The notes beneath the pieces are model-generated. The model was not told the DNA's origin. It ran no database searches and worked only from the letters and a program-made list of their open reading frames with translations. 64,000 nucleotides of DNA from Vicinamibacterales bacterium (lineage in GTDB: Bacteria > Acidobacteriota > Vicinamibacteria > Vicinamibacterales > UBA2999). A program made the position numbers and the translations under genes. Positions 13,283 through 61,158 of this stretch are shown piece after piece. Position 1 is the first letter of the stretch. Each line of letters opens with the position of its first letter. Location of the stretch: positions 97,166-161,165 of the forward strand of contig DAIRVG010000001.1 of NCBI GenBank assembly GCA_036802945.1. Reading direction: 5' to 3'.

Positions 13283-13287
13283 CACAG

Positions 13288-20973: not shown

Positions 20974-20980
20974 CGTCGCA

Positions 20981-25520: not shown

Positions 25521-25522
25521 AC

Positions 25523-28254: not shown

Positions 28255-28788
28255 ATGCCCCTGGCCTCGGTAGTCGTCGCCTCGACAGGAGCCGATCGTG
28301 AAGATCGAGTCGCGCTCATTCCGGCTGTGGCACTTGCTGTTCCAGTGGTTTTGGCTTTCCTCGTCCTTGGTGCATTCGTGATCGCGGAGGCTGCCGGAGC
28401 GCGACCCTTTGCGGTGGCACCGGATGCGAACGTCGCGGAAGCGACGGCATTCGGGGACGCCGGGCAGGCGCTGGCGTTTATCGCTTCAGGACAGGATCCG
28501 AATCACCGCTGGACGGTGCGGCAGGACCTGGTGGATTCGCGCGGCGCATTGAACCTGACGGCCATACAGGCGGCGATCCTGGCGCGGCGCCCTGAACTCG
28601 TCGAACTCCTGCTGCGCCACGGTGCTCGCGCGGACGATCCGGAAGGGCTGGCGTGTCTCGCGCAGGCTGTCGGCAAGGGCGCCGAGCTACTCCCGTCCGT
28701 CTTCGGCGCAACGAACACCGACTACTATCACGGACCGCCGATCGGCGGCAGGGAGGCGCTCGCGCAGTGTGGCTTTCCGTTTGACTGA
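28255..28788 (+). CDS. Membrane-anchored protein with ankyrin-like repeat(s)
   Basis: TM segment IPAVALAVPVVLAFLVLGAFVI. Ankyrin-like LTAIQAAILARRPELVELLLRHGARADD. Confidence 0.45.
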   Translation: MPLASVVVASTGADREDRVALIPAVALAVPVVLAFLVLGAFVIAEAAGARPFAVAPDANVAEATAFGDAGQALAFIASGQDPNHRWTVRQDLVDSRGALNLTAIQAAILARRPELVELLLRHGARADDPEGLACLAQAVGKGAELLPSVFGATNTDYYHGPPIGGREALAQCGFPFD

Positions 28789-28795
28789 GGACCGC

Positions 28796-30508
28796 GTGGC
28801 TGACCAACGGGGACACGCTGGGGCCGATGTTGATGCTCGAAAGCCGCGAGTGGTGCGTTGGGGCACCTGGGCCACGGCAATCGTCCTGGGTGTCATCACC
28901 GCGATCGTGAGATTCCTCTCCGTCGTCGGGTTTCCCAACGATCACTACCTCCATCTGGCGGGAGCGCAGCAGATACTGTTCGGCGAATGGCCGACCCGCG
29001 ACTTCGTCGACCCGGGGATGCCCCTGATGTACGCCGCCTCTGCTGGTGCCCAGCTCCTGATAGGGCGCTCGCTCCTCGCCGAGGCCGTTCTCGTGAGCGT
29101 GGCGTTCGGGCTGGCAACCGCGCTTACCGTGTTCGCGGCGCGCCGGCTCTCGGGATCGCTGGCGATTGCGGTGCCGGCGGCCCTGGCGCAGCTGCTGATT
29201 TTTCCCCGCTCCTACGGCTACCCGAAGCTGCTGTTCTACGCGGCGGCGCCGCTCGTGGCGTGGTGGTATGCGGCCCGGCCATCCGTCGCGCGGCTCGCCG
29301 CGCTGTCGGCTCTCGTCGCGATTGCGTTTCTCTTCCGCCACGATCATGGGGTCTTCCTGGGTGTGGCCGCGTTCGTCGCGGTCGCGCTGACGCATGCGGC
29401 ACTCGGTCCGTGGCGCGCGCTGGCAAGAGCCGGCCTCATGGTGGCGTTCACGGTGCTATGGCTCGCGCCGTACGGACTCTACGTGATGCGTTATGCCGGT
29501 CTCGTTGACTACGTGCGCGTGGGCGCGGCCTACAGCCGGGCCGAGGCGGATCGGACGCGCATGGACATGCCTCGGCTCGTGCTTGGCGACGGCCTTACCG
29601 AGGCATGTGGCAAGGAGGGCGGCGGCCTGGCGTTCGCCAGGTGTGCAGCCAGGCACAACGCGGATGCGTGGATGTTCTACGGCTTCTACGCGCTGCCGCT
29701 CGCGGCGCTCGCGGTGGTGGGCGTTGCCGCCGGGCGGCGACGCGACTGGGACACTGCGGCGCTCGTGGCGCCCGTTGCGGTGCTGGCCCTGCTCGTAGAC
29801 TGGAGCTTCCTCCGCGATCCATTGGAATCGCGGTTGCCCGACGTGATCGTGCCAGCGGTGCTGCTTTTTGCGTGGCTTGCCGGCCGAGCCGTCCGTGTGG
29901 CTCCTTTCGTAGCGCGGCTTGTGCCTGTTGCCGGGCTCGCCCTCCTTGCGACGATCAGCGCCGAGGCGATCGCCGTTGTCGGCGACACCTATGAGCAGCT
30001 GGATCGGACCGGCCTGGCCGAGCACCCGGGGCGGGCGGCGGAGTTCGTGCGCGCGAAGTGGGCCGAGTTCGGCGATCCGTATTCACGCGAGCAGATGCCG
30101 GACGGCCGTGTCGAGCCGCTGGTGCCGTTCTTCCGCTACCTCCAGCGGTGCACGACACCCGACCAGCGTCTCCTCGTGACCGGAAACGCCCCCGAGCTGT
30201 ACGTCTTCGCCCGGCGCCCGTTCGCTGGAGGTCTGATCAGCTGGTTTCCAGGCTATTACGCAGCTGCGGACTCCGCCCTTGCGCAATCGCGGCTCGACGC
30301 GCAACGCGTCGCGTTCGTGCTGGTTCTCACCGACTGGTACGGCGAGTGGGTGCGCGCTTTTCCGCCTGTCGCCGCGTGGGTCTCTTCCCGGTTTATGCCG
30401 ATGACCGACATCCGGGTGAACGACGAGCGCACCGTCCACGTGCTCGTACATCGTGACTTTCTGGGCGCGGACCCCGACGCCAGCACCGGGTGGCCGTGCG
30501 CGCACTGA
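28796..30508 (+). CDS. Polytopic membrane protein, GT-C (ArnT/PMT)-like candidate with C-terminal soluble domain
   Basis: Multiple TM helices in the first ~400 aa, followed by a non-hydrophobic ~170-aa C-terminus. The GTG at 28796 is the first in-frame start after the upstream stop, so the start is uncertain. Confidence 0.55.
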   Translation: MADQRGHAGADVDARKPRVVRWGTWATAIVLGVITAIVRFLSVVGFPNDHYLHLAGAQQILFGEWPTRDFVDPGMPLMYAASAGAQLLIGRSLLAEAVLVSVAFGLATALTVFAARRLSGSLAIAVPAALAQLLIFPRSYGYPKLLFYAAAPLVAWWYAARPSVARLAALSALVAIAFLFRHDHGVFLGVAAFVAVALTHAALGPWRALARAGLMVAFTVLWLAPYGLYVMRYAGLVDYVRVGAAYSRAEADRTRMDMPRLVLGDGLTEACGKEGGGLAFARCAARHNADAWMFYGFYALPLAALAVVGVAAGRRRDWDTAALVAPVAVLALLVDWSFLRDPLESRLPDVIVPAVLLFAWLAGRAVRVAPFVARLVPVAGLALLATISAEAIAVVGDTYEQLDRTGLAEHPGRAAEFVRAKWAEFGDPYSREQMPDGRVEPLVPFFRYLQRCTTPDQRLLVTGNAPELYVFARRPFAGGLISWFPGYYAAADSALAQSRLDAQRVAFVLVLTDWYGEWVRAFPPVAAWVSSRFMPMTDIRVNDERTVHVLVHRDFLGADPDASTGWPCAH

Positions 30509-38547: not shown

Positions 38548-39471
38548 TTGATCGACTGTATCGCCGGGTATCACCTGAATCCATGGACGTGCGGCATCGC
38601 GAAGTTCAACGCGATTCTCGCGCGGCGTCTCGATGTGCCCGTCGTCGGGATCGGCACGGTGGACCTGAACGGTTACAAGCGACCACTCTTGTCGCTGAAG
38701 ATGTCCGAGTTCTCGGCGGAACATGCGCTTGCGCTCGATACGTGGATTGATCGTCACGCCGGCGAGTTCGAGCTCTTCCTGCACGCGTTCGACAACAGTG
38801 CGCTCGAGAAGCGGATGCTGGCGGCGGCGGCCAGGGTCTGCTGCGGAAATCGCGAGCTGTCCGAACAGCTGAAGCCGGCGCGTCCCGATATCGTCGAGCT
38901 ATTCTGCCCGGGAACGCTGCTCAATCCAGAGCGTTTCGACAGGACCGAGCTGTCCGTGTTCACCTTCGGCATGGCGCACAAGATTCGCGTGCCCCTCTAT
39001 CGGCGGCTCCGGGATCTGCTGGACGCAACGGGCAAGACCTACTCGGTCTACGTCTCGACGGCGCTTCACGAGAACACGAGCTTTGACGATTCGTTCGTCG
39101 TCCGGTTCGAGGAGCTGCAGTCGATTTTCAACCGGCAGGTATATTTCATGGGCTACCTGTCGGACACGGCGGTCTTCAATCATCTGGTCGACTGCACATT
39201 CGTCGCGGCATTCTTCGAGAAGGGGTTGCGCGCGAACAACACCACGGTTAACGCGGCGATGGAAGTCGGGTGCGCCGTCGTTACGAACCTCGACGATCAC
39301 TCGCCCGAGGGCCTCGTCCACATGAGGAACGTGATCGACATCAACCGGTGCGATCGCCTGCCAGAGGCGGCGGAGGCGGAAACAATTGGCCGCGCGGCGC
39401 GCGAGATCGCGCACGCGGACTACGGGTGGGACCAGCTCGTCGCGCAGCTGCGTCCCGTCGTTCAGATATAG
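38548..39471 (+). CDS. Hypothetical protein, possibly a divergent GT-B (GT4-like) C-terminal fold
   Basis: 307-aa ORF with a TTG start. The block YFMGYLSDTAVFNHLVDCTFVAAFFEKGLRANNTTVNAAMEVGCAVVT resembles a GT-B donor-binding region but lacks a clear EX7E. Codon third positions look less GC-biased than in the neighbours. Confidence 0.45.
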   Translation: MIDCIAGYHLNPWTCGIAKFNAILARRLDVPVVGIGTVDLNGYKRPLLSLKMSEFSAEHALALDTWIDRHAGEFELFLHAFDNSALEKRMLAAAARVCCGNRELSEQLKPARPDIVELFCPGTLLNPERFDRTELSVFTFGMAHKIRVPLYRRLRDLLDATGKTYSVYVSTALHENTSFDDSFVVRFEELQSIFNRQVYFMGYLSDTAVFNHLVDCTFVAAFFEKGLRANNTTVNAAMEVGCAVVTNLDDHSPEGLVHMRNVIDINRCDRLPEAAEAETIGRAAREIAHADYGWDQLVAQLRPVVQI

Positions 39472-39526
39472 GCGGGGCGCAAAGCCCCCGCCCTACATGT
39501 GTAGGGCGCCCCTTTACGGGGGCGCC
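39471..39526 (+). terminator. Three consecutive GC-rich stem-loops (terminator/processing-site candidate, no U-tract)
   Basis: GGCGGGG-cgcaaagc-CCCCGCC, CCTACA-tg-TGTAGG and GGCGCCCC-tttacg-GGGGCGCC. Confidence 0.4.
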
Positions 39527-39542: not shown

Positions 39543-40619
39543 TTGGCAGGGACTATCAGAATCGGCACCCACGAGATCGGCGACCACACCAAGTGCTATG
39601 TGATTGCCGAAATCGGCCACAACCACCAGGGCAGCCTCGAGAAGGCCCGAGAGCTGTTCCGCGAGGCGAAGCTGGCCGGCGCCAACGCGGTCAAGCTGCA
39701 GAAGCGCGATAACCGTGGCCTCTACACGCGAGCGGCGTACAACAAGCCGTACGACAACGAAAACAGCTTCGGGTCGACCTACGGCGAGCACCGCGAGTTC
39801 CTCGAGTTCGGCCTCAAGGAGTACCGCGCGCTGCAGGCGTACGCGCGCGAGCTCGATGTCGATTTCTTCTCGACCGCGTTCGATGTCGCCAGCGCCGATT
39901 TCCTGCGGCAGCTGGACGTCCCCGCCTACAAGATCGCGTCCGGCGATCTCAAGAGCACGCCGCTGCTGAAGCATGTCGCGAGGTTTGGCAAGCCGATGGT
40001 CATCTCCACCGGCGGCGCCGTGATCGAGGACGTGCAGCGCGCGTACGACACGATCATGCCAGTCAATCCGCAGCTGGCCATCCTGCAGTGCACCGCCGGG
40101 TATCCGGCAGCGTTCGAGGAGCTCGACCTGCGCGTCATCGACACGTACCGCGCGCGGTTCCCGGGCGCGGCGATCGGCTTCTCCAGCCACGACAACGGCA
40201 TTGCGATGCCGGTGGCCGCTTACATGCTCGGCGCGCGTATTGTCGAGAAACACTTCACGCTGAATCGTGCGATGAAGGGGACCGACCACGCGTTCTCCCT
40301 CGAGCCGGTCGGCTTGCGCAAGATGGTGCGCGACCTCGATCGCACGTACAAGGCGCTTGGCAATGGCATGAAGAAGATTTTCGACAGCGAGAAGGCGCCA
40401 ATCATCAAGATGGGCAAGAGCCTCGTCGTCGCGCGCGATCTTCCGGCCGGCCACGTGATTGGCGCGAATGACATCGTGATGAAGTCGCCCGCTGGCGGCA
40501 TTCCACCGTACGAGTTGAACAAGGTGATCGGCCGCGTGACGCTCAAGCCGCTGATGCAGGACGATTTCCTCACCTTCGAGGTGCTGAGCAAGCCCGACGC
40601 CGAGCTCGCCCGCTCGTGA
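39543..40619 (+). CDS. NeuB-family synthase of the NANS / sugar-phosphate-using type (ulosonate-9-phosphate synthase candidate)
   Basis: YVIAEIGHNHQGS, NKPYDNENSFGSTYGEHREFLEF, KIASGD, FSSHDNG and a C-terminal SAF-like LVVARDLPAGHVIGANDIVMKSP. The only in-frame start after the hairpins is TTG 39543, preceded by GGGGAGA. Confidence 0.8.
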   Translation: MAGTIRIGTHEIGDHTKCYVIAEIGHNHQGSLEKARELFREAKLAGANAVKLQKRDNRGLYTRAAYNKPYDNENSFGSTYGEHREFLEFGLKEYRALQAYARELDVDFFSTAFDVASADFLRQLDVPAYKIASGDLKSTPLLKHVARFGKPMVISTGGAVIEDVQRAYDTIMPVNPQLAILQCTAGYPAAFEELDLRVIDTYRARFPGAAIGFSSHDNGIAMPVAAYMLGARIVEKHFTLNRAMKGTDHAFSLEPVGLRKMVRDLDRTYKALGNGMKKIFDSEKAPIIKMGKSLVVARDLPAGHVIGANDIVMKSPAGGIPPYELNKVIGRVTLKPLMQDDFLTFEVLSKPDAELARS

Positions 40620-41425
40620 GCGGACGCTTCAGCCTCGATCACCAGATCGCAGTCGTCACCGGTGCGTGCGGCAGGCTTGGACCCATATGGGTCGAGGCGC
40701 TGCTCGACGCCGGTGCCCGCGTTGCGGCGCTTGAATTACCGGGCGCCCCGGTCTCGGCGGCGTTCCTCGCGCTCGCGGAACGGTCGCCGCTCACGCTCGA
40801 GCGGTTCGATTGCGACATTACCAGGCGCGAGTCGATTGAACGCGCGGCGGCGGCCGTGGCAAGCCGCATGGGCGCCGCCAGCGTGCTCGTCAACAACGCT
40901 GGCGTCGATCAGCCGCCCGACGCGGGCGGCAATCGATCGATCATCGACGATCTTCCAATCGAACAATTCCGGAAGATGATAGAGGTCAACCTCCTCGGCA
41001 CCTTCCAGGTGACCCAGGTGTTTGGCGGACAGATGGCGGCGCGCGGACACGGCTCGATCATCAACATCGGCTCGCTGTACGCATCGGTGTCGCCCGATCA
41101 GCGGTTCTACGATCACCTGCCCGGGGATGCGCCGTTTCTCAAGTCGCCGGCCTACGGCGCATCGAAGGCGGCGGTGGTCAATATGACGAAATACTTTTCG
41201 ACGCTGTGGGGCCGGCAGGGGATTCGCGTGAACACGTTGTCTCCCGGCGGCGTACTGGGCGGCCAGGACGACCAGTTCAGGTCGAAGTACGGCGCGCGGG
41301 TGCCGCTCGGGCGGATGGCGCAGGCGGACGATCTGAAAGGGCCTCTCGTGTTCCTCGCTTCGCCTGCGTCATCGTACGTCACGGGTCACGAGCTTCGCGT
41401 CGACGGAGGCTTCACGGCGTGGTGA
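40616..41425 (+). CDS. Short-chain dehydrogenase/reductase
   Basis: AVVTGACGRLG, NNAG and YGASKAAV. The GTG overlaps the upstream TGA. Confidence 0.8.
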   Translation: MSGRFSLDHQIAVVTGACGRLGPIWVEALLDAGARVAALELPGAPVSAAFLALAERSPLTLERFDCDITRRESIERAAAAVASRMGAASVLVNNAGVDQPPDAGGNRSIIDDLPIEQFRKMIEVNLLGTFQVTQVFGGQMAARGHGSIINIGSLYASVSPDQRFYDHLPGDAPFLKSPAYGASKAAVVNMTKYFSTLWGRQGIRVNTLSPGGVLGGQDDQFRSKYGARVPLGRMAQADDLKGPLVFLASPASSYVTGHELRVDGGFTAW

Positions 41426-41440
41426 ATCCGAATGTCTGTC

Positions 41441-41486
41441 GGGTTTGCTTGGGTTTTGGGTTTTGGGATTTGGGTTTTGGGGTTTG
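41441..41486 (+). repeat. Tandem TTGGGTT heptamers (x5) with a G-quadruplex-competent motif on the sense strand
   Basis: GGGTTTGCTTGGGTTTTGGGTTTTGGGATTTGGGTTTTGGGG holds six G3+ tracts with 4-7-nt loops. It ends 4 nt before the ALDH ATG. Confidence 0.85.
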
Positions 41487-41489
41487 ACG

Positions 41490-42995
41490 ATGATCACGAC
41501 TTCAGCGTCAAGGAGTAGCTCGATCGACCTGTCGTCCATCCCAGCCACAATCTCGAATCAGATCGGTAGCGACGAGATGCCGTCTGTGGACGGACGCACG
41601 TTCCGCAAGATGGATCCGGCGACCGGCCGAGCGCTGTGCGAGGTTGCGCGATCCACCGCCGCGGACGTGGAGCTCGCGGTCACGAAGGCGAAGGCGGCGC
41701 AGCCGGCGTGGGCCGCGCTGACGGTGGTCAAGCGCGGAGACATCCTGCGGCAGATTGCGCTGCTGATGCGCGAGCACCGCGACGCGATCGCGGCGCTCGT
41801 CGCAATGGAAACCGGCAAGTCCAGAAAGGACGCGCTGGGTGAGACCGACGCCGCGATCGAGATGGGCTTCTTTGTCGCCGGCGAAGGCCGCCGCTTCTAC
41901 GGCCAGACGACAACCAGCGCGGTGCCGAACAAGTCCGCAATGGTTGTTCGCCAGCCGCTTGGCGTCGCGGGCCTCATCATTGCGGCGAACACGCCGATCG
42001 CCAATGTGGCCTGGAAGGCGTTCCCCGCCCTGCTGTGCGGCAATGCGGCGATTCTGAAGGCGGCCGAGGATACGCCGCTCTCAGCGTGGGCGTTCGGGAT
42101 CCTCGCGCGCGAGGCAGGGGTTCCCGACGGCGTCTACACGACGCTTCACGGATTCGGTGAGGAGGCGGGTGCGCCGCTCGTCCAGCATCCCGAGGTGTCG
42201 GTCATCAGCTTCACCGGCTCGTGCGAGGTCGGCCGCTGGATCGCCGAGACTGCGGGCCGTCGGCTTGCGAAGGTCTGCCTCGAGCTCGGCGGCAAGAATC
42301 CGTTGATTGTTTGTGATGATGCGGATTTGCAGAATGCCGTGACGTGGACCGTGGGATCGGCGTTCAGCAACGCCGGTCAGCGGTGCGCGGCCGGGAGTCG
42401 CATCATCGTGTTCGACGCCGTGTACGACCAGTTCAAGTCGATGCTCGTCGAAGCCACCAGGAAGCTGAAGGTGGGGACGGGCGACACCGATGACTACGGA
42501 CCGGTCATCAACCAGGAGCAGATGACCAACATGCTTGCGGCCGTGGAGCGCGCGAAGCAGTCGGGGGCGGCAGTGCTCACCGGCGGCGAGCGGTTGACGG
42601 GCACGAGCTACGGGGACGGCTACTTCGTCGCGCCGACAATCGTGGAGCATGTCGGGCCGAACGATGACATCACGCGCAGCGAGCTGTTCGGGCCGATCAC
42701 CTGTCTCTACCGGGTCAAGGATTTCGAGGAGGCGATTACGCTGGCCAACGACTCGCCCTTCGGCCTGACGGCCTCGATTCACACGCAGAACATCAACCGG
42801 GCCATGACGTTCATCGGCCGGATCCAGTCGGGCGTGGCTGTCGTGAATGGCGGTACCTATGGCAGCGAACCACACCTGCCGTTCGGCGGCCTTCGTCACT
42901 CGGGCAACGGCTGGCGCGAGGCGGGGACGCAGGCGCTCGACGTGTACTCGGATCTCAAGACCGTTTACATCAATCACAATCCGCAGGCTGTATGA
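41490..42995 (+). CDS. NAD(P)-dependent aldehyde dehydrogenase
   Basis: FTGSCEVGRWI, ELGGKNPLIV and NAGQRCAAGSRIIV. ATG 41490 is preferred because the 41445 start would translate the repeat. Confidence 0.85.
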   Translation: MITTSASRSSSIDLSSIPATISNQIGSDEMPSVDGRTFRKMDPATGRALCEVARSTAADVELAVTKAKAAQPAWAALTVVKRGDILRQIALLMREHRDAIAALVAMETGKSRKDALGETDAAIEMGFFVAGEGRRFYGQTTTSAVPNKSAMVVRQPLGVAGLIIAANTPIANVAWKAFPALLCGNAAILKAAEDTPLSAWAFGILAREAGVPDGVYTTLHGFGEEAGAPLVQHPEVSVISFTGSCEVGRWIAETAGRRLAKVCLELGGKNPLIVCDDADLQNAVTWTVGSAFSNAGQRCAAGSRIIVFDAVYDQFKSMLVEATRKLKVGTGDTDDYGPVINQEQMTNMLAAVERAKQSGAAVLTGGERLTGTSYGDGYFVAPTIVEHVGPNDDITRSELFGPITCLYRVKDFEEAITLANDSPFGLTASIHTQNINRAMTFIGRIQSGVAVVNGGTYGSEPHLPFGGLRHSGNGWREAGTQALDVYSDLKTVYINHNPQAV

Positions 42996-43028
42996 CGCCT
43001 TCACACTTCGTGGTTCTCGCTTCTCTGT

Positions 43029-43116
43029 GTGTTCATGTTCGGTTCAGCGTTCGCGGTTCCTGGTTCCGCGTTCGCTTCGAACAATGAACGTCGAACCGCG
43101 AACCGAACATGAACAC
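43029..43116. repeat. Intergenic long imperfect hairpin built from GGTTC-type heptamers
   Basis: GTGTTCATGTTCGGTTC (43029-43045) is exactly complementary to GAACCGAACATGAACAC (43100-43116). Additional GCGGTTC/GAACCGC pairs lie inside. Confidence 0.8.
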
Positions 43117-43140
43117 GAACTGAGCACGTAGAAGGCAGAA

Positions 43141-43914
43141 GTGCGAACACCACGATCTCCGAGCGCCGTCGCCCTTGTCCCCGCACGACGAGGTTCCAAG
43201 CGGATCCCCGGAAAGAACGTCCGTCTGCTGCAAGGTCATCCGATGCTGGCGTACACGATCGCGCCAGCCATCGAGAGCGGCGTGTTCGACGCAGTGATAG
43301 TGTCAACCGACTCCGACGAGACCGCGGCGATCGCGCGCCACTATGGCGCCGAAGTGCCGTTTCTGAGGCCGGAGGAGTTTGCAGGCGACAGGTCGCCGGA
43401 CATCGAGTGGGTGCAGTACACGCTCGGAGAGCTGAAGCGCCGAGGCCGCAGCTGGGATTGTTTCTCGCTGCTCCGACCGACGAGTCCGTTTCGCACCGCG
43501 GACACGATCCGCCGGGCTTGGGAACGCTTTACGGCGCAGGACAGCGTGGATTCGCTGCGCGCCGTCGAGAAATGCGGGCAGCATCCCGCCAAGATGTGGG
43601 TTGTGCAGGGCGATCGGATGGTTCCACTGCTACAGCCGTCGGATCCGGCCGCGCCGCCGTGGCACAGCATGCCGTACCAGGCGCTGCCGCCGATTTATGT
43701 GCAGAATGCGTCACTGGAGATCGCTTGGACGCGTGTCGTCTCGGAGAAACGGACGATCGCCGGCGACGTGCTGGTGCCGTTCATCACGCAAGGCTACGAG
43801 GGGTTCGATGTCAACGACCCGCACGACTGGATGATTGCCGAGCGCCTGCTCGTGGATGGCACGGTCACGTTACCGCGCGTCGCGCAGGAGCCGTACGGCG
43901 CGGTGCGAGCGTGA
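43141..43914 (+). CDS. NeuA/KdsB-family cytidylyltransferase, copy 3
   Basis: ALVPARRGSKRIPGKN and LLRPTSPFR. GTG start. Confidence 0.8.
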   Translation: MRTPRSPSAVALVPARRGSKRIPGKNVRLLQGHPMLAYTIAPAIESGVFDAVIVSTDSDETAAIARHYGAEVPFLRPEEFAGDRSPDIEWVQYTLGELKRRGRSWDCFSLLRPTSPFRTADTIRRAWERFTAQDSVDSLRAVEKCGQHPAKMWVVQGDRMVPLLQPSDPAAPPWHSMPYQALPPIYVQNASLEIAWTRVVSEKRTIAGDVLVPFITQGYEGFDVNDPHDWMIAERLLVDGTVTLPRVAQEPYGAVRA

Positions 43915-43995
43915 CAACTCCCAACCTCCAACGCCCAACTCCCAAGAAGCCTCGCTTCGGGGCCTTGGGAGTTGGGATTTGGGTCTTGGGAATTG
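43915..43995. repeat. Intergenic hairpin with 4+4 heptamer arms; the G-rich arm is G4-competent
   Basis: CAACTCC CAACCTC CAACGCC CAACTCC CAAG, a 17-nt loop, then CTTG GGAGTTG GGATTTG GGTCTTG GGAATTG. Confidence 0.85.
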
Positions 43996-44004
43996 AATTG
44001 ACGA

Positions 44005-45960
44005 ATGGGTGATTTACAGACAGACCAAGGCGAAAGTCTAGACCTTCGCTACGTGCCCGTGTCGGAGTTCACACGGGTCGTGGGTGCCAAGGCTGATGCG
44101 GCCGCGCGTGCGGAGGCATTCGCGGCGCTCGCGCGGATCAATACGCTGTACATGATCGCAGGCGCATGGTCGGGTCACATCGGGACGAGTTTCAGCTCGA
44201 TCGAGATCATGAGCTGGCTGTTTCTCAACGAATTGCGCGACCTCGGAAAGGGGCCCGACGACTGCGATGTCTTCTTTTCATCAAAAGGTCACGACGCGCC
44301 GGCCCTCTATGCGGTCCTGATCGGCCTCGGCCTGCTTCCTGCCGATAAGCTCCATCAGCTTCGGCGGCTTGGCGGACTTCCCGGACATCCGCACGTCGAG
44401 ACGCCGTACATCCAGGCGAACACCGGGTCGCTCGGCATGGGAATCTCGAAGGCGAAGGGGATGGCGCTGGCGAACCGTCTGGCCGGCAGGCCGCGCCGCA
44501 TTTTCGTGCTGACGGGCGATGGTGAGCTGCAGGAGGGGCAGTTCTGGGAGTCGCTCGGCTCCGCGGCGAACATGGGGCTCGGTGAGATCGTCGCGATTAT
44601 CGACCACAACAAGATCCAGTCGGACACGTGGGTCAGGAAAGTCAGTGACCTCGGCGACATCCAGGCCAAGCTGAGCGCCTTCGGCTGGCACGTGAGCCGC
44701 TGCGACGGCCACGACGTGCGCGCGCTCGAGCGCACGTTCCGCGCGCTTGACGCCGTTACGGATCGCCCGAAAGTCATCATCGCGGACACGGTAAAAGGTC
44801 GAGGTGTCTCGTTCATGGAAGGTCCCGCCGCGCTGAAGGCGAGCGATCTGTACCTGTTCCACTCAGGCGCGCCGCCCGAACAGCAGTACCTCGATGGCTT
44901 CCAGCAACTGCTGGCGATCGCCGAGCGCGCGTGTGCTGGTCTCGGGCTCGGTTCGCTGAAGACAGAAACGCGAACGCGCAATCCGCGCCGCGAGCCGCGT
45001 GACACGCAGAACCTCGTGGCGGCGTACGGGAAGGCGCTCGTGCAGCAGGCCGATCGCCATCCCCGGCTGGTCGTGCTCGACGCGGACCTGATCAAGGATT
45101 GCGGTCTGCTCGAGTTCGCCGCGAAGTATCCGCAGCGCTTCATCGAATGCGGGATTGCGGAACAGGACATGGCGTCGATGGCGTGCGGCATGGCGCGCCG
45201 CGGTGTGCTTCCAGTCGCGCATTCGTTCGCGTGCTTCCTCTCTACGCGGCCGAACGAGCAGATCTACAACCAGTGCAGCGAGGGGTCGAAGGCGATCTAC
45301 GTCGGGTCGCTTGCAGGCGTCCTGCCTGGCGGCCCCGGCCACTCGCACCAGTCAGTCCGCGACATCAGCGCGCTGAGCGCTGTGCCGAACCTGCTGATGG
45401 CTGAACCCGCGGCGGAAGCCGAGGTGCAGGCGGTGTTCGAGTACCTCGTGAACGACGCGACGGAGAGCGCCTACCTGCGACTCGTGTCGGTGAAATGGCC
45501 GCTGCCGTTCTCGTACCCGTCGAGCGTTCGCGTCGAGCCCGGCAAGGGATGGATCGTCCGCCCGGGAAACGACGCCGTGGTCTTCGGGTACGGACCGTGG
45601 ATGTTGTCCAACGCCTGGCACGCTGCCGAAGAGATTGAGCAGACGACCGGCTCTCGGCTGCGCATCGTCAACCTGCCGTGGCTCAATCGAGTGGATGCTG
45701 CGTGGCTGAAGGAAACGATCGGCCCTTGCCGCGCGATCATCACGCTCGATAACCACTACCTCCACGGCGGGCAGGGGGAGATGCTCGGCGCGGCGGTCGC
45801 GGAGCTCGGCCTCGATCCGGCGGCGCGCGTCTCGCGCATCGGCGTCACCGAGCTGCCCGAGTGCGGCACCAACGACGAAGTGCTCGCATATCACGGGCTC
45901 GACATCGCCGGGCTCGTCCGGCAGTTCAGCGCCGCCATGCGGCAGCACACTTTTCAATGA
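44005..45960 (+). CDS. Transketolase-family ThDP enzyme, N- and C-terminal halves fused in one chain
   Basis: SGHIGTSFSSIEI, VLTGDGELQEGQFWES, IIDHNKIQ and a C-terminal FIECGIAEQDMASMACGMA. Confidence 0.85.
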   Translation: MGDLQTDQGESLDLRYVPVSEFTRVVGAKADAAARAEAFAALARINTLYMIAGAWSGHIGTSFSSIEIMSWLFLNELRDLGKGPDDCDVFFSSKGHDAPALYAVLIGLGLLPADKLHQLRRLGGLPGHPHVETPYIQANTGSLGMGISKAKGMALANRLAGRPRRIFVLTGDGELQEGQFWESLGSAANMGLGEIVAIIDHNKIQSDTWVRKVSDLGDIQAKLSAFGWHVSRCDGHDVRALERTFRALDAVTDRPKVIIADTVKGRGVSFMEGPAALKASDLYLFHSGAPPEQQYLDGFQQLLAIAERACAGLGLGSLKTETRTRNPRREPRDTQNLVAAYGKALVQQADRHPRLVVLDADLIKDCGLLEFAAKYPQRFIECGIAEQDMASMACGMARRGVLPVAHSFACFLSTRPNEQIYNQCSEGSKAIYVGSLAGVLPGGPGHSHQSVRDISALSAVPNLLMAEPAAEAEVQAVFEYLVNDATESAYLRLVSVKWPLPFSYPSSVRVEPGKGWIVRPGNDAVVFGYGPWMLSNAWHAAEEIEQTTGSRLRIVNLPWLNRVDAAWLKETIGPCRAIITLDNHYLHGGQGEMLGAAVAELGLDPAARVSRIGVTELPECGTNDEVLAYHGLDIAGLVRQFSAAMRQHTFQ

Positions 45961-46682
45961 CTATTCTGTTTTGGGATATCGACGGGACACTGCTCACGAC
46001 CGGCAAGGCCGGTGTGCCCGCCTGGGAAGGGGCCGTTCGCGAGACAACGGGGAAGGAATTCCAGTTGTCGTCGATTCGCGTGCCCGGGCTGACGGACTAC
46101 CAGATCGCGGCGCGAACCTTCGAGTTGCTGGGCGTCCCCACGACCGGCGACGTGCTCAAGCGGATGGTGACACGCTATGAGGAGCTGCTGCCCTCGACGC
46201 TTCCCTTGAAGCAAGGGCACGTGCTGCCCAATGTGCGCGAGATTCTCGAGGCGCTGCGCGCGAGGACGGACATCCGTTCGTACTTGTTGACCGGCAACAC
46301 GCGCGCGGGCGCGCGGGCAAAGCTGACACACTACGACCTGTTGAAATACTTTCCCGACGGAGGGTTCGCCGAGGATCAGGGAAACCGGTCGACGATCGCG
46401 AAGCGCGCGCTGGAACTGGCGCGCCGCAGCGGTCCGGTGACGGCCGATCGGATCTTCGTGATTGGCGATACGCCGCACGACATCGAGTGCGCGGCGCCGA
46501 TCAACGCCCGCACGATCGCGGTTGCCACGGGCGGCTTCACCGTCGAAGAGTTGTCGGCATATCACCCCTGGCGCGTATTCGCCGAACTGCCGCCGCCGTC
46601 TGAGTTCCTGCGGCTCATCGAAGAGCCCGCTCAAGCCGGCCCCCATGTACCGTCGATGCCCGCTGATCCCGTCCGCGCATGA
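45957..46682 (+). CDS. HAD-superfamily phosphatase (capped, HAD-IA-like)
   Basis: LFWDIDGTLL (DxDxT), LLTGN and VIGDTPHDI. The ATG overlaps the upstream TGA. Confidence 0.8.
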   Translation: MTILFWDIDGTLLTTGKAGVPAWEGAVRETTGKEFQLSSIRVPGLTDYQIAARTFELLGVPTTGDVLKRMVTRYEELLPSTLPLKQGHVLPNVREILEALRARTDIRSYLLTGNTRAGARAKLTHYDLLKYFPDGGFAEDQGNRSTIAKRALELARRSGPVTADRIFVIGDTPHDIECAAPINARTIAVATGGFTVEELSAYHPWRVFAELPPPSEFLRLIEEPAQAGPHVPSMPADPVRA

Positions 46683-48415
46683 GGCACTTCATCCGGCACT
46701 TCCCGGCGCTCTGGCGGGCGAGCCGGCTTGCGCGCCGGTGGTATTACGCCCGGCGGAACGCCTACCCGGACTGGCGGCAGGCATTGGCTGCGGATCGGGG
46801 TTTGTGGGACTCGGCCCGCAACGCGGCACAGGGCGGGCCGCGGGTGCTGATGGCAACCGCGATTGGGTCATATGCGCATGCTGTGACGCTCGAGAGCGCG
46901 CTTGCGGCCGCGTTGACGTTCCGTGGCGCGGAAGTGCACGCGCTGCTGTGCGACGGCACCATGACCGCCTGCGCCGAATGCGAGGCGTCGCTGTATCCGA
47001 ATCTTCGCCATTTCGTTGATCACGGCCCTTCGCGCGATCTATGCCGCGACTGCCGGTGGCCCGCCGAGCGTGTCTATCAGCAGCTCGGGCTGAAGGTGCA
47101 CCTCATGGGCGACTCGTTGACGCCCGCCGATCGTGCCGAGGCAAGCCGCATCGCATCGTCATTGCCGCTGGATCAGATCGAAGACTTCGTCCTGGACGGA
47201 CTGGCGATCGGCGAGCATGCGCACGCCGGTGCACTGCGATTTTTTGCGACCGGTTCATTGGACCAAGAGCCCCACGCGGAACCGATCCTGCGCCGCTACC
47301 TGGAATCGGCGTTGCTGACGGCGTCTGCCACGCGTCGCCTGATGCGCGAGGTGCAATTCTCGTCGGCGGTCTTCACGCACGGCATCTACGTGCCGTGGGG
47401 AATTGTCGGCGAGGTTGCGCGCCACGAGGGCGTGCGCGTGTCCAACTGGAACGTTGCCTACCGCAAGCGGCGGTTCATCTTCAGCCACGGCCACACCTAC
47501 CATCACACGCTCCTGAGCGAGCCGCGCGAACACTGGGAACATCTCGACCTCTCGGCGTCACGGGAGCGCGAGCTGATGCAGTACCTCGCGAGCCGTCGCG
47601 AGGGGATGTTCGACTGGATCGTCTTCCATCGCCCTACGAAGCAGGACCCGCAAGAGATCGCCAGGAAGATCGGCCTCGACCCGTCGAAGCCCGCCATCGG
47701 CCTGCTCACCAACGTTGCGTGGGACGCGCAGCTTCACTATCCGGCCAACGCGTTCCCCAACATGCTCGAGTGGCTCGTGCAGACGTGCGAGTACTTCGCC
47801 ACGCGGCCGGATTTGCAGCTGCTGATCCGGGTCCACCCCGCGGAAATCAGCGGCTTCCCGCCGTCGCGCCAGCCGATCCTCGCCGAGCTTCGCAAGCGCC
47901 TCCCGCGCCTCGCGTCCAACATCATCGTCGTCCCCCCCGAAAGCGGCCTCGGCACATATGCGCTGATGTCGCTCTGTAACTCTGCCATCATCTACGGCAC
48001 CAAGATGGGCGTAGAGCTGACGAGCGTCGGGCTGCCAGTGATCGTCGCCGGCGAAGCGTGGATCCGCAACAAGGGGATCACGCTGGATGCGAGCACGCCT
48101 GACGAGTATTTCCGGCTGCTCTCGCTGCTGCCGTTCGCCGAACGCCTCTCACCGCCGCAGCTCTCGCGAGCGAGGCGCTATGCGTACCACTTCTTCTTCA
48201 ATCGCATGATCCCGCTGCCGTTCATCGAGCCCAAAGCGGGCTATCCGATCTACCGGCTGAAGCTCGAGCGGCTGCAGCAGTTACTGCCTGGCGCCTCACA
48301 CGGCCTGGATACGATCTGCGACGGCATCCTTGCACAAGGGCCCTTCGTTCTGCGCGACAAGGCCAGCAGGACCCCGGCCATCATCGCGGCGCCAGAACCG
48401 TCCGCGGTTCAGTGA
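46679..48415 (+). CDS. Capsule-synthesis (KpsC/KpsS)-like GT-B transferase candidate with an N-terminal Cys cluster
   Basis: LLIRVHPAE, AIIYGTKMGVELTSVGLPVIVAG and the Cys cluster CDGTMTACAECE...CRDCRW. The ATG overlaps the upstream TGA. Confidence 0.55.
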   Translation: MRHFIRHFPALWRASRLARRWYYARRNAYPDWRQALAADRGLWDSARNAAQGGPRVLMATAIGSYAHAVTLESALAAALTFRGAEVHALLCDGTMTACAECEASLYPNLRHFVDHGPSRDLCRDCRWPAERVYQQLGLKVHLMGDSLTPADRAEASRIASSLPLDQIEDFVLDGLAIGEHAHAGALRFFATGSLDQEPHAEPILRRYLESALLTASATRRLMREVQFSSAVFTHGIYVPWGIVGEVARHEGVRVSNWNVAYRKRRFIFSHGHTYHHTLLSEPREHWEHLDLSASRERELMQYLASRREGMFDWIVFHRPTKQDPQEIARKIGLDPSKPAIGLLTNVAWDAQLHYPANAFPNMLEWLVQTCEYFATRPDLQLLIRVHPAEISGFPPSRQPILAELRKRLPRLASNIIVVPPESGLGTYALMSLCNSAIIYGTKMGVELTSVGLPVIVAGEAWIRNKGITLDASTPDEYFRLLSLLPFAERLSPPQLSRARRYAYHFFFNRMIPLPFIEPKAGYPIYRLKLERLQQLLPGASHGLDTICDGILAQGPFVLRDKASRTPAIIAAPEPSAVQ

Positions 48416-50199
48416 TTTACTCTTCCCTCGCATTTCTGATGTCGATGCTGGCGTGCGTGGCGCTGTGCGCGCTCGTCCGCCGGACGGCACCGGCGATCGG
48501 CGCGGTCGTGCCGCCTCGCGCCGATCGCTGGCACAGCGAGCCGACGCCGACGATGGGGGGTGTCGCGATCGCGGCTGCGGCGGTGCTGGGGTCCGGAGTC
48601 ATCGTCGGCCAGGCGCACGCGGTGATTCCTCCCGCCGCGTGGCTGCCGATCCCGCTCGCCGCGATCGCGATGTTCGTCGTCGGCGTCCTCGACGATCGGT
48701 TCCAGCTGTCGCCGCTCGCCAAGCTCGTCGCGTCGCTCATCATCGGCGCCTTTCTGGTGTTTTCGCTGACGAGAAGTCCCGGCACGGCGCTGCCATGGAC
48801 CCATACGCTGGTCGCGACGATCTGGTTTGCCGGTGTGTGCCACGCCTTCAACCTGCTCGACAACATGGATGGTCTCGCCGCCGGCGTGGCGTTGATTGCG
48901 GCGGGATTCATGGCATGGCTGCTCGCCCCGTGGCTCGGCGCGCCTATCGCGCTGTTGCTCGTCGCCTTGTGCGGGGCGCTGCTTGGGTTTCTGTACTGGA
49001 ACCGTCCACCCGCGCGGCTCTTCATGGGCGACTGTGGGAGCCTCTTTGTCGGGGCTGTACTTGCCGGCGCATCGCTGATGCCGGTGCTGCAGGAGCGTAC
49101 CGTGTTTCCGTGGACGTCCGTGCTGGTGGTGCTGATTCTCGTGGTCCCGCTGTTCGATACCGGTTTCGTGCTCGTCCTTCGGAGGTTCGCGGGCCGAAGC
49201 GCCACGCGAGGCGGCACGGACCACGTGTCGCACCGCCTCGTGTCGCTTGGCTTCTCCGAGCGGAGCGCGGTGCGGATCCTGTATCTCCTCGCCATCATCG
49301 GCGGATGCGTGGCGTGGGCGCTGGTCAACGGCGGCATCGAGCAGATGTTTCCGCTGGCCGCGCTTCTGGCTGTTGTGGTCACGCTCATTGGCATCTACCT
49401 CGCGCGTGTACCCGCGTACAACGCGCAGGATTTCACCGCGCTCGAGAGCTCGTCGTTTGCTCCGCTGCTCAAAGACCTGACGTTCCGCTGGCACGCCGGC
49501 GAAGTGATGCTCGATCTGGTGCTGATCGCGGCGTGCTACTACTTTGCGTACCGCTTGCGGTTCGAAGGCGAGAGTCTCGATCACTTCCTGCCATACTTCA
49601 CGGCGTCGCTTCCGGTTGTGCTCGGCTGCAAGCTCGCTTCGCTGTACGGCTCCGGGCTGTATCAGCGGTCGTGGGAAACGTTCGGTCTTCGTGACGTCAG
49701 CGTCGTCCTTCGCGGTGTGGTGATGGGTTCCCTCTTGTCGGTGCTGGCGGCAGCATACTTCTACCGGCTCGAGGGTTTCTCACGCGTGGTGTTCATGCTG
49801 GATGCATTGCTGCTCACGGTAGCGATCATCGGCACGCGGGCATCGTTTCGGAGCATGAGCCTCATCGCCGCGTCGCGCAGCAAGCGGAGCCGCCGCGTGC
49901 TCGTGTATGGCGCCGGGGCGTACGGCCAGATGATCGTGCGCGAGATGCGGGCCAACCCCCAATGGCACATGAACCCCGTTGCGTTCATCGACGACGACCC
50001 GATGAAAGCGCACCGCTGGATCCTGGGTGTGCCCGTCCGCGGCACCCTGGAGCAGCTGGACACGACGATGCGCCGCTACTCTGTGGACGAAGTCATCCTC
50101 AGCAGCCCGCTGATCAACGGTCAGATTGAACACCGGATTCGCGAGGTGTGCACCGATCTCGATCGTCCCGTGCGGCGGCTGCACATGAGCATCCAGTAA
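48412..50199 (+). CDS. WecA/MraY-family polyprenyl-phosphate N-acetylhexosamine-1-phosphate transferase fused to a C-terminal 4-TM + Rossmann-like module
   Basis: DDRFQLSPLAKL and NLLDNMDGLAAG. The C-terminal RVLVYGAGAYGQMIVREM...VAFIDDDP...VDEVILS resembles the N-terminal module of WbaP/PglF-type proteins. Confidence 0.8.
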   Translation: MIYSSLAFLMSMLACVALCALVRRTAPAIGAVVPPRADRWHSEPTPTMGGVAIAAAAVLGSGVIVGQAHAVIPPAAWLPIPLAAIAMFVVGVLDDRFQLSPLAKLVASLIIGAFLVFSLTRSPGTALPWTHTLVATIWFAGVCHAFNLLDNMDGLAAGVALIAAGFMAWLLAPWLGAPIALLLVALCGALLGFLYWNRPPARLFMGDCGSLFVGAVLAGASLMPVLQERTVFPWTSVLVVLILVVPLFDTGFVLVLRRFAGRSATRGGTDHVSHRLVSLGFSERSAVRILYLLAIIGGCVAWALVNGGIEQMFPLAALLAVVVTLIGIYLARVPAYNAQDFTALESSSFAPLLKDLTFRWHAGEVMLDLVLIAACYYFAYRLRFEGESLDHFLPYFTASLPVVLGCKLASLYGSGLYQRSWETFGLRDVSVVLRGVVMGSLLSVLAAAYFYRLEGFSRVVFMLDALLLTVAIIGTRASFRSMSLIAASRSKRSRRVLVYGAGAYGQMIVREMRANPQWHMNPVAFIDDDPMKAHRWILGVPVRGTLEQLDTTMRRYSVDEVILSSPLINGQIEHRIREVCTDLDRPVRRLHMSIQ

Positions 50200-53557: not shown

Positions 53558-54652
53558 TTACTGCAGCAGTTCGTCGACCAGCCGCGCCACCTGCTCCCCG
53601 ATGGCGAGACAGGCGGTGAGTCCCGGTGATTCAATTCCCGCGGCCTGGATCAGTCGTGGACACGCTTCGTCTCTGCCAATCAGAAAGTCAGCGAATGTCG
53701 TCTCGGGTCCATGAAGCTTGGGACGGATACCGCTGCCGCCAAGGCGGAGATCCGAGAGTTGCAATGAGGGAAGGAGCCGCCGCGCCGGGTCGAGAAAGGC
53801 ATCAACAGGAAGACGCGCGTCTTCGTAGTCGTCCTTGCGACTCTGAAATCGCGTGGTCGGTCCGAGTGTCACGTTGCCGTGAATCGTCTTGCTCAAGTGC
53901 GTGCCGAGGCTGTGGGTGTGGGGAAGCGGATAGACGAGGCCGTTGACCAGCGCGCGTTTCGACGGCACGAGTTCCGCGTATTCACCCCGGCACGGAAAGA
54001 TGCGAAATGACGATCCTCCGAGTGCCGTAGAGATCTCGTCGGCATAGAGGCCGGCCGCGTTGACGACGGAACGAGCGTCGATCCGCTCCGACGCAGTCGC
54101 GATTTCGATCGAGCGGTCGCGCTGTTCGGCGCCTGTCAGCTCTGTTCCGGGCAACAGGAAGACACCTTGTTCTGCGCCGAGGCGCGCGAGCGTCCTGACA
54201 AGTGCTTCCGCTTCGAGAATCCCCGTATTCGGCGAGATGAGCGCGGCCACGGCCTGGACGTTCGGCTCGCGTGCGCGGACGTACGCGGCGTCCACCACCT
54301 CGAGGCCTTGAACGCCATTCGCGATCCCTTTGGCACGCAATCCTTCAAGCGCCGGGATTTCCGTGTCGTCGTGCGCGACGATCAGCTTCCCGCAGCGGCG
54401 GTGCGGCACGCCATGCGCCGCGCAGAATTCGTATAGCAAACGCGCGCCTTCCACGCAGTGTCTCGCCTTGAGCGACCCGGGCGGATAGTAGATGCCCGCG
54501 TGAATCACCTGGCTGTTGTGCGTGCTGGTGCCCATGCCGGGGCGCGGCTCCCTTTCGAGGACGCACACGCTGCGCCCCCGTCGCGCCAGGGCCAGGGCCG
54601 CGGCAAGTCCGACGACGCCCCCTCCGATGACCGCCGTATCGATCTGTTCCAT
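53558..54652 (-). CDS. FAD-dependent oxidoreductase (L-2-hydroxyglutarate oxidase/DAO-like)
   Basis: [20 protein letters not shown] and [15 protein letters not shown]. Confidence 0.75.
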
Positions 54653-59065: not shown

Positions 59066-60331
59066 TTACGCCCGTTTTCCGATGGCTGCGTAATCGAGGT
59101 AGGTGAACAGCAGGCGGTTGATCTTTTCGACGTTCTCGTTCAGCGTGGCGACCAGATTCTCAAAGCCGGCTGGCGGCTGCGCTGCAAGCGACTGCAATTT
59201 ATCGCTCTCCGGATAGGGCGCCCGATACCGAATCTCCACGTGCTGAAAGCCCGTGGCGATGAGCAGGTACTTCAATGTGTCTGGATGGACGGGACGCACG
59301 TGCGTCAGGTCGCGGATGTAGCTTTCGAAGAACGCGAACCAGCAGGCGGGATTGATCGTCTCGAGCACGATCGGCGCCCCCGGACGCAGCTTGTCGAACG
59401 CCGCATCGAGCAGCTGCATCAGGTAGCGCGGTTCGAGATGCTCGACGACCTGGGCCGCAAACAATCCCCCTAACGATCCGTCCGGCAGGCCGCGCAGGTA
59501 CGTGAGCGCGTCAGCGGTGACCGCATCGAGCCCGTGCGCGCAGCACACGTCCACCATCGCGGGGTTCACATCGATGCCGCGGGCGGTGATGCCCTGGTCG
59601 CGGAGCAACTCGAGGAACTCGCCGCGGCCGCAGCCGACGTCGAGGACGTCGCTCGCTTTGATCCCCGATCCCTGATCCCCGATTCCCAGGAACATCGGCA
59701 GATACTCGGCGACTCGCCGCTGGATATCTTCGGGCGAGCCACGGAACTGATCCTCGAAGCCGACGTACTTGTGGCTGTCGAGGTCATCGAACTGGTTGCC
59801 AGGGACTGTGTCGGCGGCGCTGCCAGGTGCGGCGTTCGCCTTGGGAGTTGGGAGTTGGGAATTGGAAGCTGGCGGCGCACCCGCTGCCAGCCTGGAGACC
59901 TCGCGTTTCAGGTTCTGTGCCGCCTGCTGCAGCACGCTGACGGCGGAGCGTAGCTCGTCGTGCTGTGCCGCAAGCGCGGCAATCGAGGTGTCGTTGCGCC
60001 GGTCGCGCGCTAGCAGGCTTTCGGTATGCCGGCGGATTCCGTCCCACTGGTTGATCGCGCCGCCAATCCACTCGATCGTCCTGAGGCTGGCCTCGTGGGC
60101 CTCGACCGCGACGGCTGCGTCGCGATTGAGGTGATCGACCAACGCGGCGTTGAACTCCTGCTGGCGTGACAGCACTCGTCCCAGGAGGCGCCGCGCCGTC
60201 GACGCCAGCCGGGACTTCAGCCCGCCTCCAGCCGGCGCATCGATGATTTGATACAGGCTGTTGAGGCGCTCGATCTGGTGGCGATCGGGTTGCGGAATCG
60301 GCGAAGGCTGCGGTCCCGTACGGTCGGACAT
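59066..60331 (-). CDS. Coiled-coil + class I SAM-dependent methyltransferase
   Basis: VLDVGCGRGEFL and LFAAQVVEHLEP. The N-terminal ~170 aa are helical and heptad-like. The linker is encoded by heptamer repeat tracts. Confidence 0.75.
   Translation of the reverse strand: MSDRTGPQPSPIPQPDRHQIERLNSLYQIIDAPAGGGLKSRLASTARRLLGRVLSRQQEFNAALVDHLNRDAAVAVEAHEASLRTIEWIGGAINQWDGIRRHTESLLARDRRNDTSIAALAAQHDELRSAVSVLQQAAQNLKREVSRLAAGAPPASNSQLPTPKANAAPGSAADTVPGNQFDDLDSHKYVGFEDQFRGSPEDIQRRVAEYLPMFLGIGDQGSGIKASDVLDVGCGRGEFLELLRDQGITARGIDVNPAMVDVCCAHGLDAVTADALTYLRGLPDGSLGGLFAAQVVEHLEPRYLMQLLDAAFDKLRPGAPIVLETINPACWFAFFESYIRDLTHVRPVHPDTLKYLLIATGFQHVEIRYRAPYPESDKLQSLAAQPPAGFENLVATLNENVEKINRLLFTYLDYAAIGKRA
59660..59687. 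repeat. Tandem heptamer tract GATCCCY x4 inside the methyltransferase CDS (G4-competent on the sense/minus strand)
   Basis: GATCCCC GATCCCT GATCCCC GATTCCC. The minus strand reads GGGAATCGGGGATCAGGGATCGGGG and encodes GIGDQGSGI. Confidence 0.85.
59842..59869. repeat. Tandem heptamer tract TTGGGAG x4 inside the methyltransferase CDS
   Basis: TTGGGAG TTGGGAG TTGGGAA TTGGAAG. This is the same heptamer as the right arm of the 43915-43995 element. It encodes SNSQLPTPK on the minus strand. Confidence 0.85.
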
Positions 60332-60335
60332 CGGA

Positions 60336-61118: not shown

Positions 61119-61158
61119 AACGCGCCTCTGTGTTTCTGTGTCTGGGTGGCCGTCTCCG

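Follow-up and report, generated by a model that had tools for sequence, protein, structure and literature searches.

The window analysed here, a stretch of 64,000 nucleotides from a Vicinamibacterales (Acidobacteriota) metagenome contig with a G+C content of 65%, is taken up almost entirely by one plus-strand glycan-biosynthesis locus. Embedded in this large locus, at 39543-48415 on the plus strand, lies a block of seven genes encoding, in order, a NANS-type ulosonate synthase, a short-chain dehydrogenase/reductase (SDR), an aldehyde dehydrogenase (ALDH), a CMP-ulosonate cytidylyltransferase, a transketolase-like enzyme, a phosphatase of the HAD superfamily and a 578-aa GT-B-like protein. A preliminary description of this DNA had placed seven such genes here, and we find all of them present, intact and translationally coupled, the 4-bp overlaps at four gene junctions being the arrangement of translational coupling. 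Identical sequence is present on a 59-kb metagenome contig in the European Nucleotide Archive (ENA), and the nearest named relatives are metagenome-assembled genomes of Vicinamibacterales (Acidobacteriota). Ulosonic acids (sialic acids, Kdo (3-deoxy-D-manno-octulosonate) and their relatives) shape cell-surface recognition, and the operon most likely makes a new acidic sugar of this kind, activated with cytidine monophosphate (CMP), for the cell surface.

The synthase (39543-40619, plus strand; 358 aa) starts at a TTG codon behind a GGGAGA ribosome-binding site and belongs to the NeuB family, with both the NeuB TIM-barrel domain (PF03102, 256.5 bits over 241 of 241 profile positions) and the C-terminal SAF domain (41.8 bits) found. 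Its scores lie below the equivalog cutoffs for NeuB/NnaB (TIGR03569; 290.8 vs 399.65 bits) and for PseI (TIGR03586; 232.3 vs 340.25 bits). With human NANS, for which the reference sequence was matched exactly to NP_061819.2, it shares 39% identity in an alignment with one gap that covers the block singled out in the preliminary description; the motif quoted there, NKPYDNENSFGSTYGEHREFLEF, is present in the synthase, as is the PY..S.G.TYGEH...LEF block of NANS-type synthases. In phmmer comparisons the synthase scored 279 bits against human NANS, as against 169.3 bits for SpsE, 149 bits for the second NeuB of the window, 137.7 bits for PseI and 134.5 bits for NeuB of N. meningitidis. Reciprocally, human NANS reached 253-324 bits with block-type synthases and 135-147 bits with the solved bacterial enzymes in the PDB, and in a neighbour-joining tree it adjoins the block-type clade, far from the free-sugar NeuB. 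By these comparisons the synthase groups with animal NANS and not with free-sugar NeuB or PseI; its earlier assignment to the NANS branch is upheld by the reciprocal scores and the single-gap alignment, and a grouping with free-sugar NeuB was seen neither in the scores nor in the tree.

The phosphatase (45957-46682, plus strand; 241 aa) is a capped HAD_2 protein (50.8 bits) in which the previously quoted DIDGT and GDTPHD motifs are both found, and not a small capless HAD of the KdsC/YrbI family. Its closest structure is 2hcf, a protein of unknown function, and it faintly matches (25 bits) a phosphatase model associated with 3-amino-5-hydroxybenzoate (AHBA). Three distant loci, L061 (Pyrinomonadaceae), L078 and L084 (Deltaproteobacteria), have in place of the window-type HAD a HAD of 174-196 aa that lies directly between synthase and SDR. 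It does belong to the KdsC/YrbI family, scoring about 92 bits with KdsC structures and 69 bits with the BT1713 entries of Bacteroides. The recruitment of two unrelated phosphatases to the same operon argues that the synthase product is phosphorylated. It supports a phosphatase step as part of the pathway, and hence the sugar-phosphate route envisaged at the outset, in which the window HAD would be the ulosonate-phosphate phosphatase. The window HAD was also considered as an orthologue of the HAD found in the actinomycete cassettes described below, which was rejected as the two have no significant similarity.

The transketolase-like enzyme (44005-45960, plus strand; 651 aa) carries all three transketolase domains of Pfam (N-terminal, pyrimidine-binding and C-terminal) in one chain, together with the GDG...N motif for thiamine diphosphate (ThDP) and metal and the catalytic His/Glu set, whereas the phosphate pocket is missing. 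It falls below every NCBIfam transketolase cutoff (best 386.7 vs 488 bits), and its closest structure is human TKT (211 bits). We aligned 13 family members from six lineages and, using human residue numbering, examined the residues that, in human transketolase, lie around the adduct of xylulose 5-phosphate (PMC8016368). His37, His77, His110, Asp155, Asn185, His258 and Glu366 are invariant in 13 of 13 members, and Lys244 is retained in the window enzyme, as judged by eye from its alignment with human TKT. The phosphate-binding residues Arg318 (to V/S/Q/A/I/P/F), Ser345 (to D), His416 (to L/Y) and Arg474 (to S/I) are replaced in all 13, as is Asp424 (to P), the changes of Ser345 to Asp and Asp424 to Pro being without exception. 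Since the residues lost are those that normally hold the phosphate and the C4 hydroxyl, and the phosphate-binding ones are all replaced, a phosphorylated substrate is unlikely for this enzyme, which should nevertheless still handle a hydroxymethyl-ketone donor, though not a sugar phosphate. With its catalytic core intact and its substrate channel rebuilt, the subfamily presents a clean target for enzymology. Two other roles were considered and rejected. Decarboxylation of the ulosonate as a 2-oxo acid would destroy the group needed by the cytidylyltransferase, and the conserved His37 and His258 point instead to a hydroxymethyl-ketone donor. A role in supplying an N-glycolyl or glycolate group would call for an aminotransferase, ligase or acyltransferase, and the conserved core has none of these.

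The SDR (40616-41425, plus strand; 269 aa; adh_short_C2, 145.7 bits) overlaps the synthase gene by 4 bp at the latter's stop and is a classical member of its family with intact TGACGRLG, NNAG and YGASK motifs. Its best NCBIfam neighbours, all below their cutoffs, are mannonate oxidoreductase, gluconate 5-dehydrogenase and KduD, enzymes that oxidise the omega-1 carbon of sugar acids. The ALDH (41577-42995, plus strand, with an alternative TTG start at 41445; 472 aa; PF00171, 512 bits) has its catalytic ELGG (Glu236) and GQRCAA (Cys270) motifs and reaches no specific equivalog cutoff; the closest NCBIfam models, 2,5-dioxovalerate dehydrogenase and alpha-ketoglutarate-semialdehyde dehydrogenase (420 bits, below cutoff), act on the terminal aldehyde of a 2-keto-3-deoxy acid. 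The spacer between the ALDH and cytidylyltransferase genes (42996-43140) contains a long, near-perfect hairpin, with arms that include GTTCATGTTCGGTTC at 43031-43045 and 43100-43114 and a fold energy of -63.9 kcal/mol (z = -5.8). This hairpin is absent from all related loci, even from the 95%-identical L005.

Activation of the product would fall to the cytidylyltransferase (43141-43914, plus strand; 257 aa), a CTP_transf_3 enzyme (PF02348, 73.3 bits; PseF, 136.7 vs a cutoff of 205.7 bits). Read from its GTG start at 43141 it contains ALVPARRGSKRIPGKN, that is, an intact N-terminal PARxGSKxxPxKN motif, which bears out the NeuA/KdsB-type assignment made earlier. The gene call on the public contig (223 aa) starts 34 codons late (at issue is 43141-43245) and so lacks this essential motif. 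The last gene of the block (46679-48415, plus strand) encodes the 578-aa protein, for which Pfam gives no match above threshold: PF05159 reaches 12.7 bits (E 0.089; cutoff 20) over residues 366-472 in the window copy and 25.4 bits in the 80%-identical homologue P0226. Its AlphaFold2 (AF2) model, of moderate confidence with a predicted local distance difference test score (pLDDT) of 64.8, matches GT-B proteins, with KpsC (6mgd) at Foldseek rank 49 and a low TM-score; the model appears GT-B-like in architecture and supports nothing finer. Profile searches of PDB sequences with this family and that of the 307-aa protein described below gave chance matches only. The former label of 'KpsC/S-like transferase' can be kept in part: the protein is a GT-B-like candidate transferase for the CMP-sugar, but its likeness to KpsC/KpsS is weak, PF05159 being below threshold in the window copy. 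Immediately downstream, a polyprenyl-phosphate sugar-1-phosphate transferase of the WecA/MraY type that also contains CoA_binding_3 (48412-50199, plus strand; Glycos_transf_4 106 bits, CoA_binding_3 59 bits; WecA and EPS_sugtrans matches in NCBIfam) is likely the initiating enzyme of a lipid-linked glycan.

A synteny scan with one genome per species gave 80 loci, and the counts that follow come from the 60 in which the contig runs on for 7.5 kb or more downstream of the synthase. The SDR adjoins the synthase in 56 of these, and the ALDH (50/60), cytidylyltransferase (48/60) and transketolase (47/60) are nearly as constant; SDR, ALDH and transketolase all lie next to the synthase in 45 of the 60, a set that spans at least four phyla (Acidobacteriota, Chloroflexota, Desulfobacterota and Alphaproteobacteria). 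Wherever the synthase is at least 77% identical and the contig permits, the full block is found, and Anaerolineales, Desulfuromusa, Roseospira and a deltaproteobacterium have the core as well. The 578-aa gene is present in 34 of the 60 loci, including those of Pyrinomonadaceae and Roseospira, and is followed in about 35 loci by the WecA-type gene, which is co-conserved downstream in Vicinamibacterales. The block is therefore real and not a chance neighbourhood, since the same order recurs in dozens of genomes from several phyla, and the co-conservation of transketolase, ALDH and SDR with the synthase, put forward as a check in the preliminary description, is confirmed. In one subclade of synthases, which are 64-69% identical (L046, L048-L051, L054, L065, L068, L069 and L082), the SDR is the only partner kept, and ALDH, transketolase and CTP_transf_3 are absent nearby; in L082 a separate 307-aa gene, followed by an ALDH gene, lies 7 kb from the synthase-SDR pair.

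Cultured strains of Streptomyces, Micromonospora, Nonomuraea and Amycolatopsis commonly have a transketolase of this subfamily. There the order is NANS-type synthase, SDR and transketolase, then RraA-like and RmlD-like proteins, a flavin-dependent oxidase (ALO), a HAD, an aminotransferase and zinc-dependent alcohol dehydrogenases (for example L085, 10126-17440; L086, 7998-17604; L087/L088, 8091-17541). ATP-grasp ligases are often nearby, a cytidylyltransferase is not found in these cassettes, and aminotransferases and alcohol dehydrogenases take the place of the ALDH. The cassette, carried by Streptomyces, Micromonospora and many other cultured actinomycetes, is conserved and apparently uncharacterised, and the synthase-SDR-transketolase trio is a portable module. 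The trio's partners are all aldehyde-handling, ALDH in the glycan loci and aminotransferases or reductases in actinomycetes, as one would expect of a trio that supplies an aldehyde. Searching plasmids by tblastn with the transketolase returned only generic split transketolases and one Streptomyces match.

Reasoning from these genes, we propose that the synthase would join phosphoenolpyruvate (PEP) to a sugar phosphate, in the simplest case a hexose 6-phosphate (mannose 6-phosphate, for instance), to give a nonulosonate 9-phosphate, from which the HAD phosphatase would release the free ulosonate. Because its closest models are all omega-1 oxidisers of sugar acids, the SDR is proposed to act next at C8, the penultimate carbinol of the free nonulosonate, creating a terminal HOCH2-CO- ketol. 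The transketolase, with its ketol-donor machinery kept and its phosphate pocket gone, would then remove C8-C9 to leave a C7 aldehyde, which the ALDH would oxidise to a carboxylate. The predicted product, 3-deoxy-hept-2-ulosaric acid (C7H10O8), is a dicarboxylic sugar of the type of 3-deoxy-D-lyxo-heptulosaric acid (Dha); the NeuA/PseF-type cytidylyltransferase would convert it to its CMP derivative, for which the 578-aa GT-B-like protein is the candidate transferase, with the WecA-type enzyme presumably starting the lipid-linked glycan. The transketolase signature, in which catalytic and ketol-binding residues are kept and phosphate-binding ones lost, argues for an unphosphorylated ketol donor. 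The D-threo geometry that a transketolase donor needs is found in ketodeoxynonulosonic acid (Kdn) at C7 and C6, counted from the tail, and with the ring oxygen on C6 there would be no need for Asp424. A Kdo-type starting sugar of eight carbons was rejected: its trimming would yield a six-carbon diacid that can form no pyranose for CMP activation.

We consider it probable that the pathway encoded by the block is real and conserved and that it leads to a CMP-ulosonic acid of non-standard type. The synthase, phosphatase, cytidylyltransferase and transferase steps are supported by sequence and synteny, and the chemistry of SDR, transketolase and ALDH we infer from gene identity, synteny and residue patterns. 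The best explanation, held with somewhat less than even confidence, is that the operon makes, activates and probably transfers an ulosonic acid with a remodelled side chain, and remodelling after condensation and dephosphorylation fits the evidence better than precursor building. Two-carbon trimming to an ulosaric acid specifically would assign a role to every conserved gene and is offered as a tentative proposal. Several observations weigh against it. SDR and ALDH were assigned from sub-threshold neighbours, in families whose specificity is poorly predictable from sequence, the window HAD is unrelated to any characterised ulosonate phosphatase, and the assignment of the 578-aa protein as a transferase is weak. 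In two loci from Anaerolineales no SDR lies within 10 kb, although synthase, ALDH, cytidylyltransferase and transketolase are all present, and the subclade that keeps only synthase and SDR is monophyletic and comprises eight loci, so that the role of the SDR may be independent of the transketolase. Moreover, a product derived from mannose 6-phosphate would differ from the D-lyxo configuration of natural Dha. The widest form of the proposal, in which the operon represents the first known route to a CMP-activated 3-deoxy-heptulosaric acid through phosphate-independent transketolase trimming, and the synthase-SDR-transketolase module is reused by actinomycetes for small molecules, we regard as possible but doubtful.

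The preliminary description had instead placed the transketolase, SDR and ALDH ahead of the synthase, where two-carbon transfer and oxidation would yield an unusual aldose phosphate for subsequent condensation with PEP. Such an order has a precedent in the AHBA/rifamycin pathway, where a dedicated transketolase feeds a PEP-condensing synthase, and the actinomycete set of SDR, aminotransferase, HAD and transketolase resembles the AHBA logic; the faint match of the window HAD to the AHBA-associated model points the same way. It is nonetheless unlikely here, given that Arg318, Ser345, His416 and Arg474 are lost in every transketolase member examined, that an ALDH acting before condensation would remove the very aldehyde required by the synthase, and that the KdsC-family phosphatases encoded right after the synthase place dephosphorylation after condensation. 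The transketolase might alternatively run in the direction of chain extension, adding a two-carbon ketol to an ulosonate aldehyde with reduction of the resulting ketone by the SDR, to give a C10-C11 ulosonic acid. Transketolases are reversible, the ketol-handling residues are intact and the SDR could serve as a ketoreductase; we still find this improbable, as the strongly co-conserved ALDH (50 of 60 loci) would be left without a role and the source of the acceptor aldehyde unexplained.

On their own, the synthase, HAD and cytidylyltransferase fit the logic of Kdn and N-acetylneuraminic acid (Neu5Ac) synthesis in Bacteroides and animals (PMC6200933), and the block could be imagined as an ordinary pathway of this kind, with transketolase, ALDH and SDR as unrelated neighbours or as makers of a separate substituent such as glycolate. 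What makes this very improbable is that SDR, ALDH and transketolase are interleaved in the same order across several phyla within translationally coupled genes, that the transketolase is of a distinct subfamily which accompanies this synthase type even in actinomycetes, and that the block lacks any conserved acyl-activating enzyme or acyltransferase.

Just upstream of the synthase, at 38548-39471 on the plus strand, a gene for a 307-aa protein without any Pfam or NCBIfam match is a syntenic partner of the synthase in Vicinamibacterales. It is present upstream of the synthase in 42 of the 60 loci at 51-98% identity. Its family has 421 representatives. Among 33 diverse members, 6 match Glyco_trans_1_4 and a fusion to CTP_transf_like is seen in 3 that are longer, and we regard the protein as a candidate divergent GT-B (GT1/GT4-type) transferase; its single-sequence AF2 model is unusable (pLDDT 39.5). 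The 72-bp spacer between this gene and the synthase holds two G+C-rich hairpins without a T-tract (39471-39526; -45.6 kcal/mol, z = -3.6), which were not scored as intrinsic terminators. Some members of the 307-aa family are fused to a TagD-like cytidylyltransferase-like domain. A TagD-like cytidylyltransferase and a methyltransferase have separate genes at 24412-25520 of the window; in the relatives L068 (8712-9956) and L074 (7869-9011) the two are fused, immediately upstream of either the synthase gene or the 307-aa gene.

Elsewhere in the window, a separate and more conventional nonulosonate pathway (17023-20886) comprises a free-sugar-type NeuB that shares 32% identity with the block synthase. 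With it are encoded a NeuC-like UDP-GlcNAc 2-epimerase, a methyltransferase and the second cytidylyltransferase of the window. The third CTP_transf_3 cytidylyltransferase lies at 4652-6801 together with another NeuC-like epimerase, and no NeuB-family synthase adjoins them. The block had been counted as the third ulosonic acid pathway of the window, which is right only in part: CTP_transf_3 genes number three, but NeuC-like epimerases and NeuB-family synthases only two each. The locus starts with an APS kinase and a sulfotransferase (1020-3678), which suggests a sulfated glycan. Large open reading frames (up to 1065 aa) without a Pfam family occur at 7816-9549, 13135-15963, 20960-23271, 25052-28249 and 28622-30508; homologues of the 942-aa and 628-aa proteins are multiple tandem paralogues in related loci, among them L046, L057 and L068, and a strong negative AT skew at 26-30 kb suggests membrane proteins. 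At the far end, outside glycan synthesis (59066-63766 and 53558-54652), are ThiG with a small ThiS-sized reading frame, a DAO/ThiO-like oxidase and, as a pair of ergothioneine genes, EgtB and EgtD (FGE-sulfatase with DinB_2, and Methyltransf_33).

Our literature searches found no described counterpart of the interleaved SDR/ALDH/transketolase tailoring, and the earlier remark that these genes are not part of any known pathway stands in that no described pathway matched. To our knowledge, every known ulosonic acid pathway leaves the carbon chain intact after PEP condensation; the module, which is conserved in abundant soil Acidobacteria as well as in several further phyla, would add tailoring by transketolase-mediated C-C cleavage and a new acidic surface sugar. 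The same transketolase subfamily also marks the uncharacterised cassette of many cultured Streptomyces and Micromonospora.

The frame of the block is the known 9-phosphate route to Kdn and Neu5Ac (NANS-NANP-CMAS in animals, and the Kdn pathways of B. thetaiotaomicron and Prymnesium), with which it shares the NANS-type synthase, the phosphatase step and activation by a CTP_transf_3 enzyme. Three related loci share even the KdsC/BT1713 family of phosphatase, which the window does not, its capped HAD being unrelated by sequence to NANP or KdsC, and the block differs in having SDR, ALDH and transketolase-like genes interleaved and co-conserved. Tailoring of a free ulosonate has a parallel in the 8-amino-8-deoxy-Kdo (Kdo8N) pathway of Shewanella, in which KdnB reportedly oxidises the Kdo tail and KdnA then transaminates it. 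Both would oxidise the tail to a carbonyl that is converted before incorporation, and the actinomycete variant even has aminotransferases. However, the block has an SDR in place of a metal-dependent alcohol dehydrogenase, together with transketolase and ALDH, and a C-C bond would be cut, which does not happen in Kdo8N synthesis.

With canonical transketolases such as human TKT and E. coli TktA the block enzyme shares the fold, the ThDP and metal motifs, the catalytic histidines, Lys244 and Glu366, whereas it is without the four phosphate-binding residues and Asp424 and is embedded in a glycan operon. Sulfoglycolytic transketolases show that enzymes of this family are able to trim two-carbon units from sugars that are anionic and non-phosphorylated. 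The 578-aa protein resembles the beta-Kdo transferases KpsC and KpsS (PF05159) in its weak match, its GT-B-like model and its place downstream of a CMP-sugar pathway, although the window copy is below the Pfam cutoff and the structural match is weak. Finally, Dha is the natural heptulosaric acid of plant rhamnogalacturonan II (RG-II) and of some lipopolysaccharide cores, and for plants neither the way it is made nor its nucleotide donor is known, according to PMC12168206. The predicted product has the same formula and is likewise a seven-carbon 2-keto-3-deoxy dicarboxylic sugar, from which we infer the link, while a mannose 6-phosphate-derived product would not be D-lyxo; should the product be a heptulosaric acid, the block would offer the first enzymatic precedent for sugars of the Dha type.

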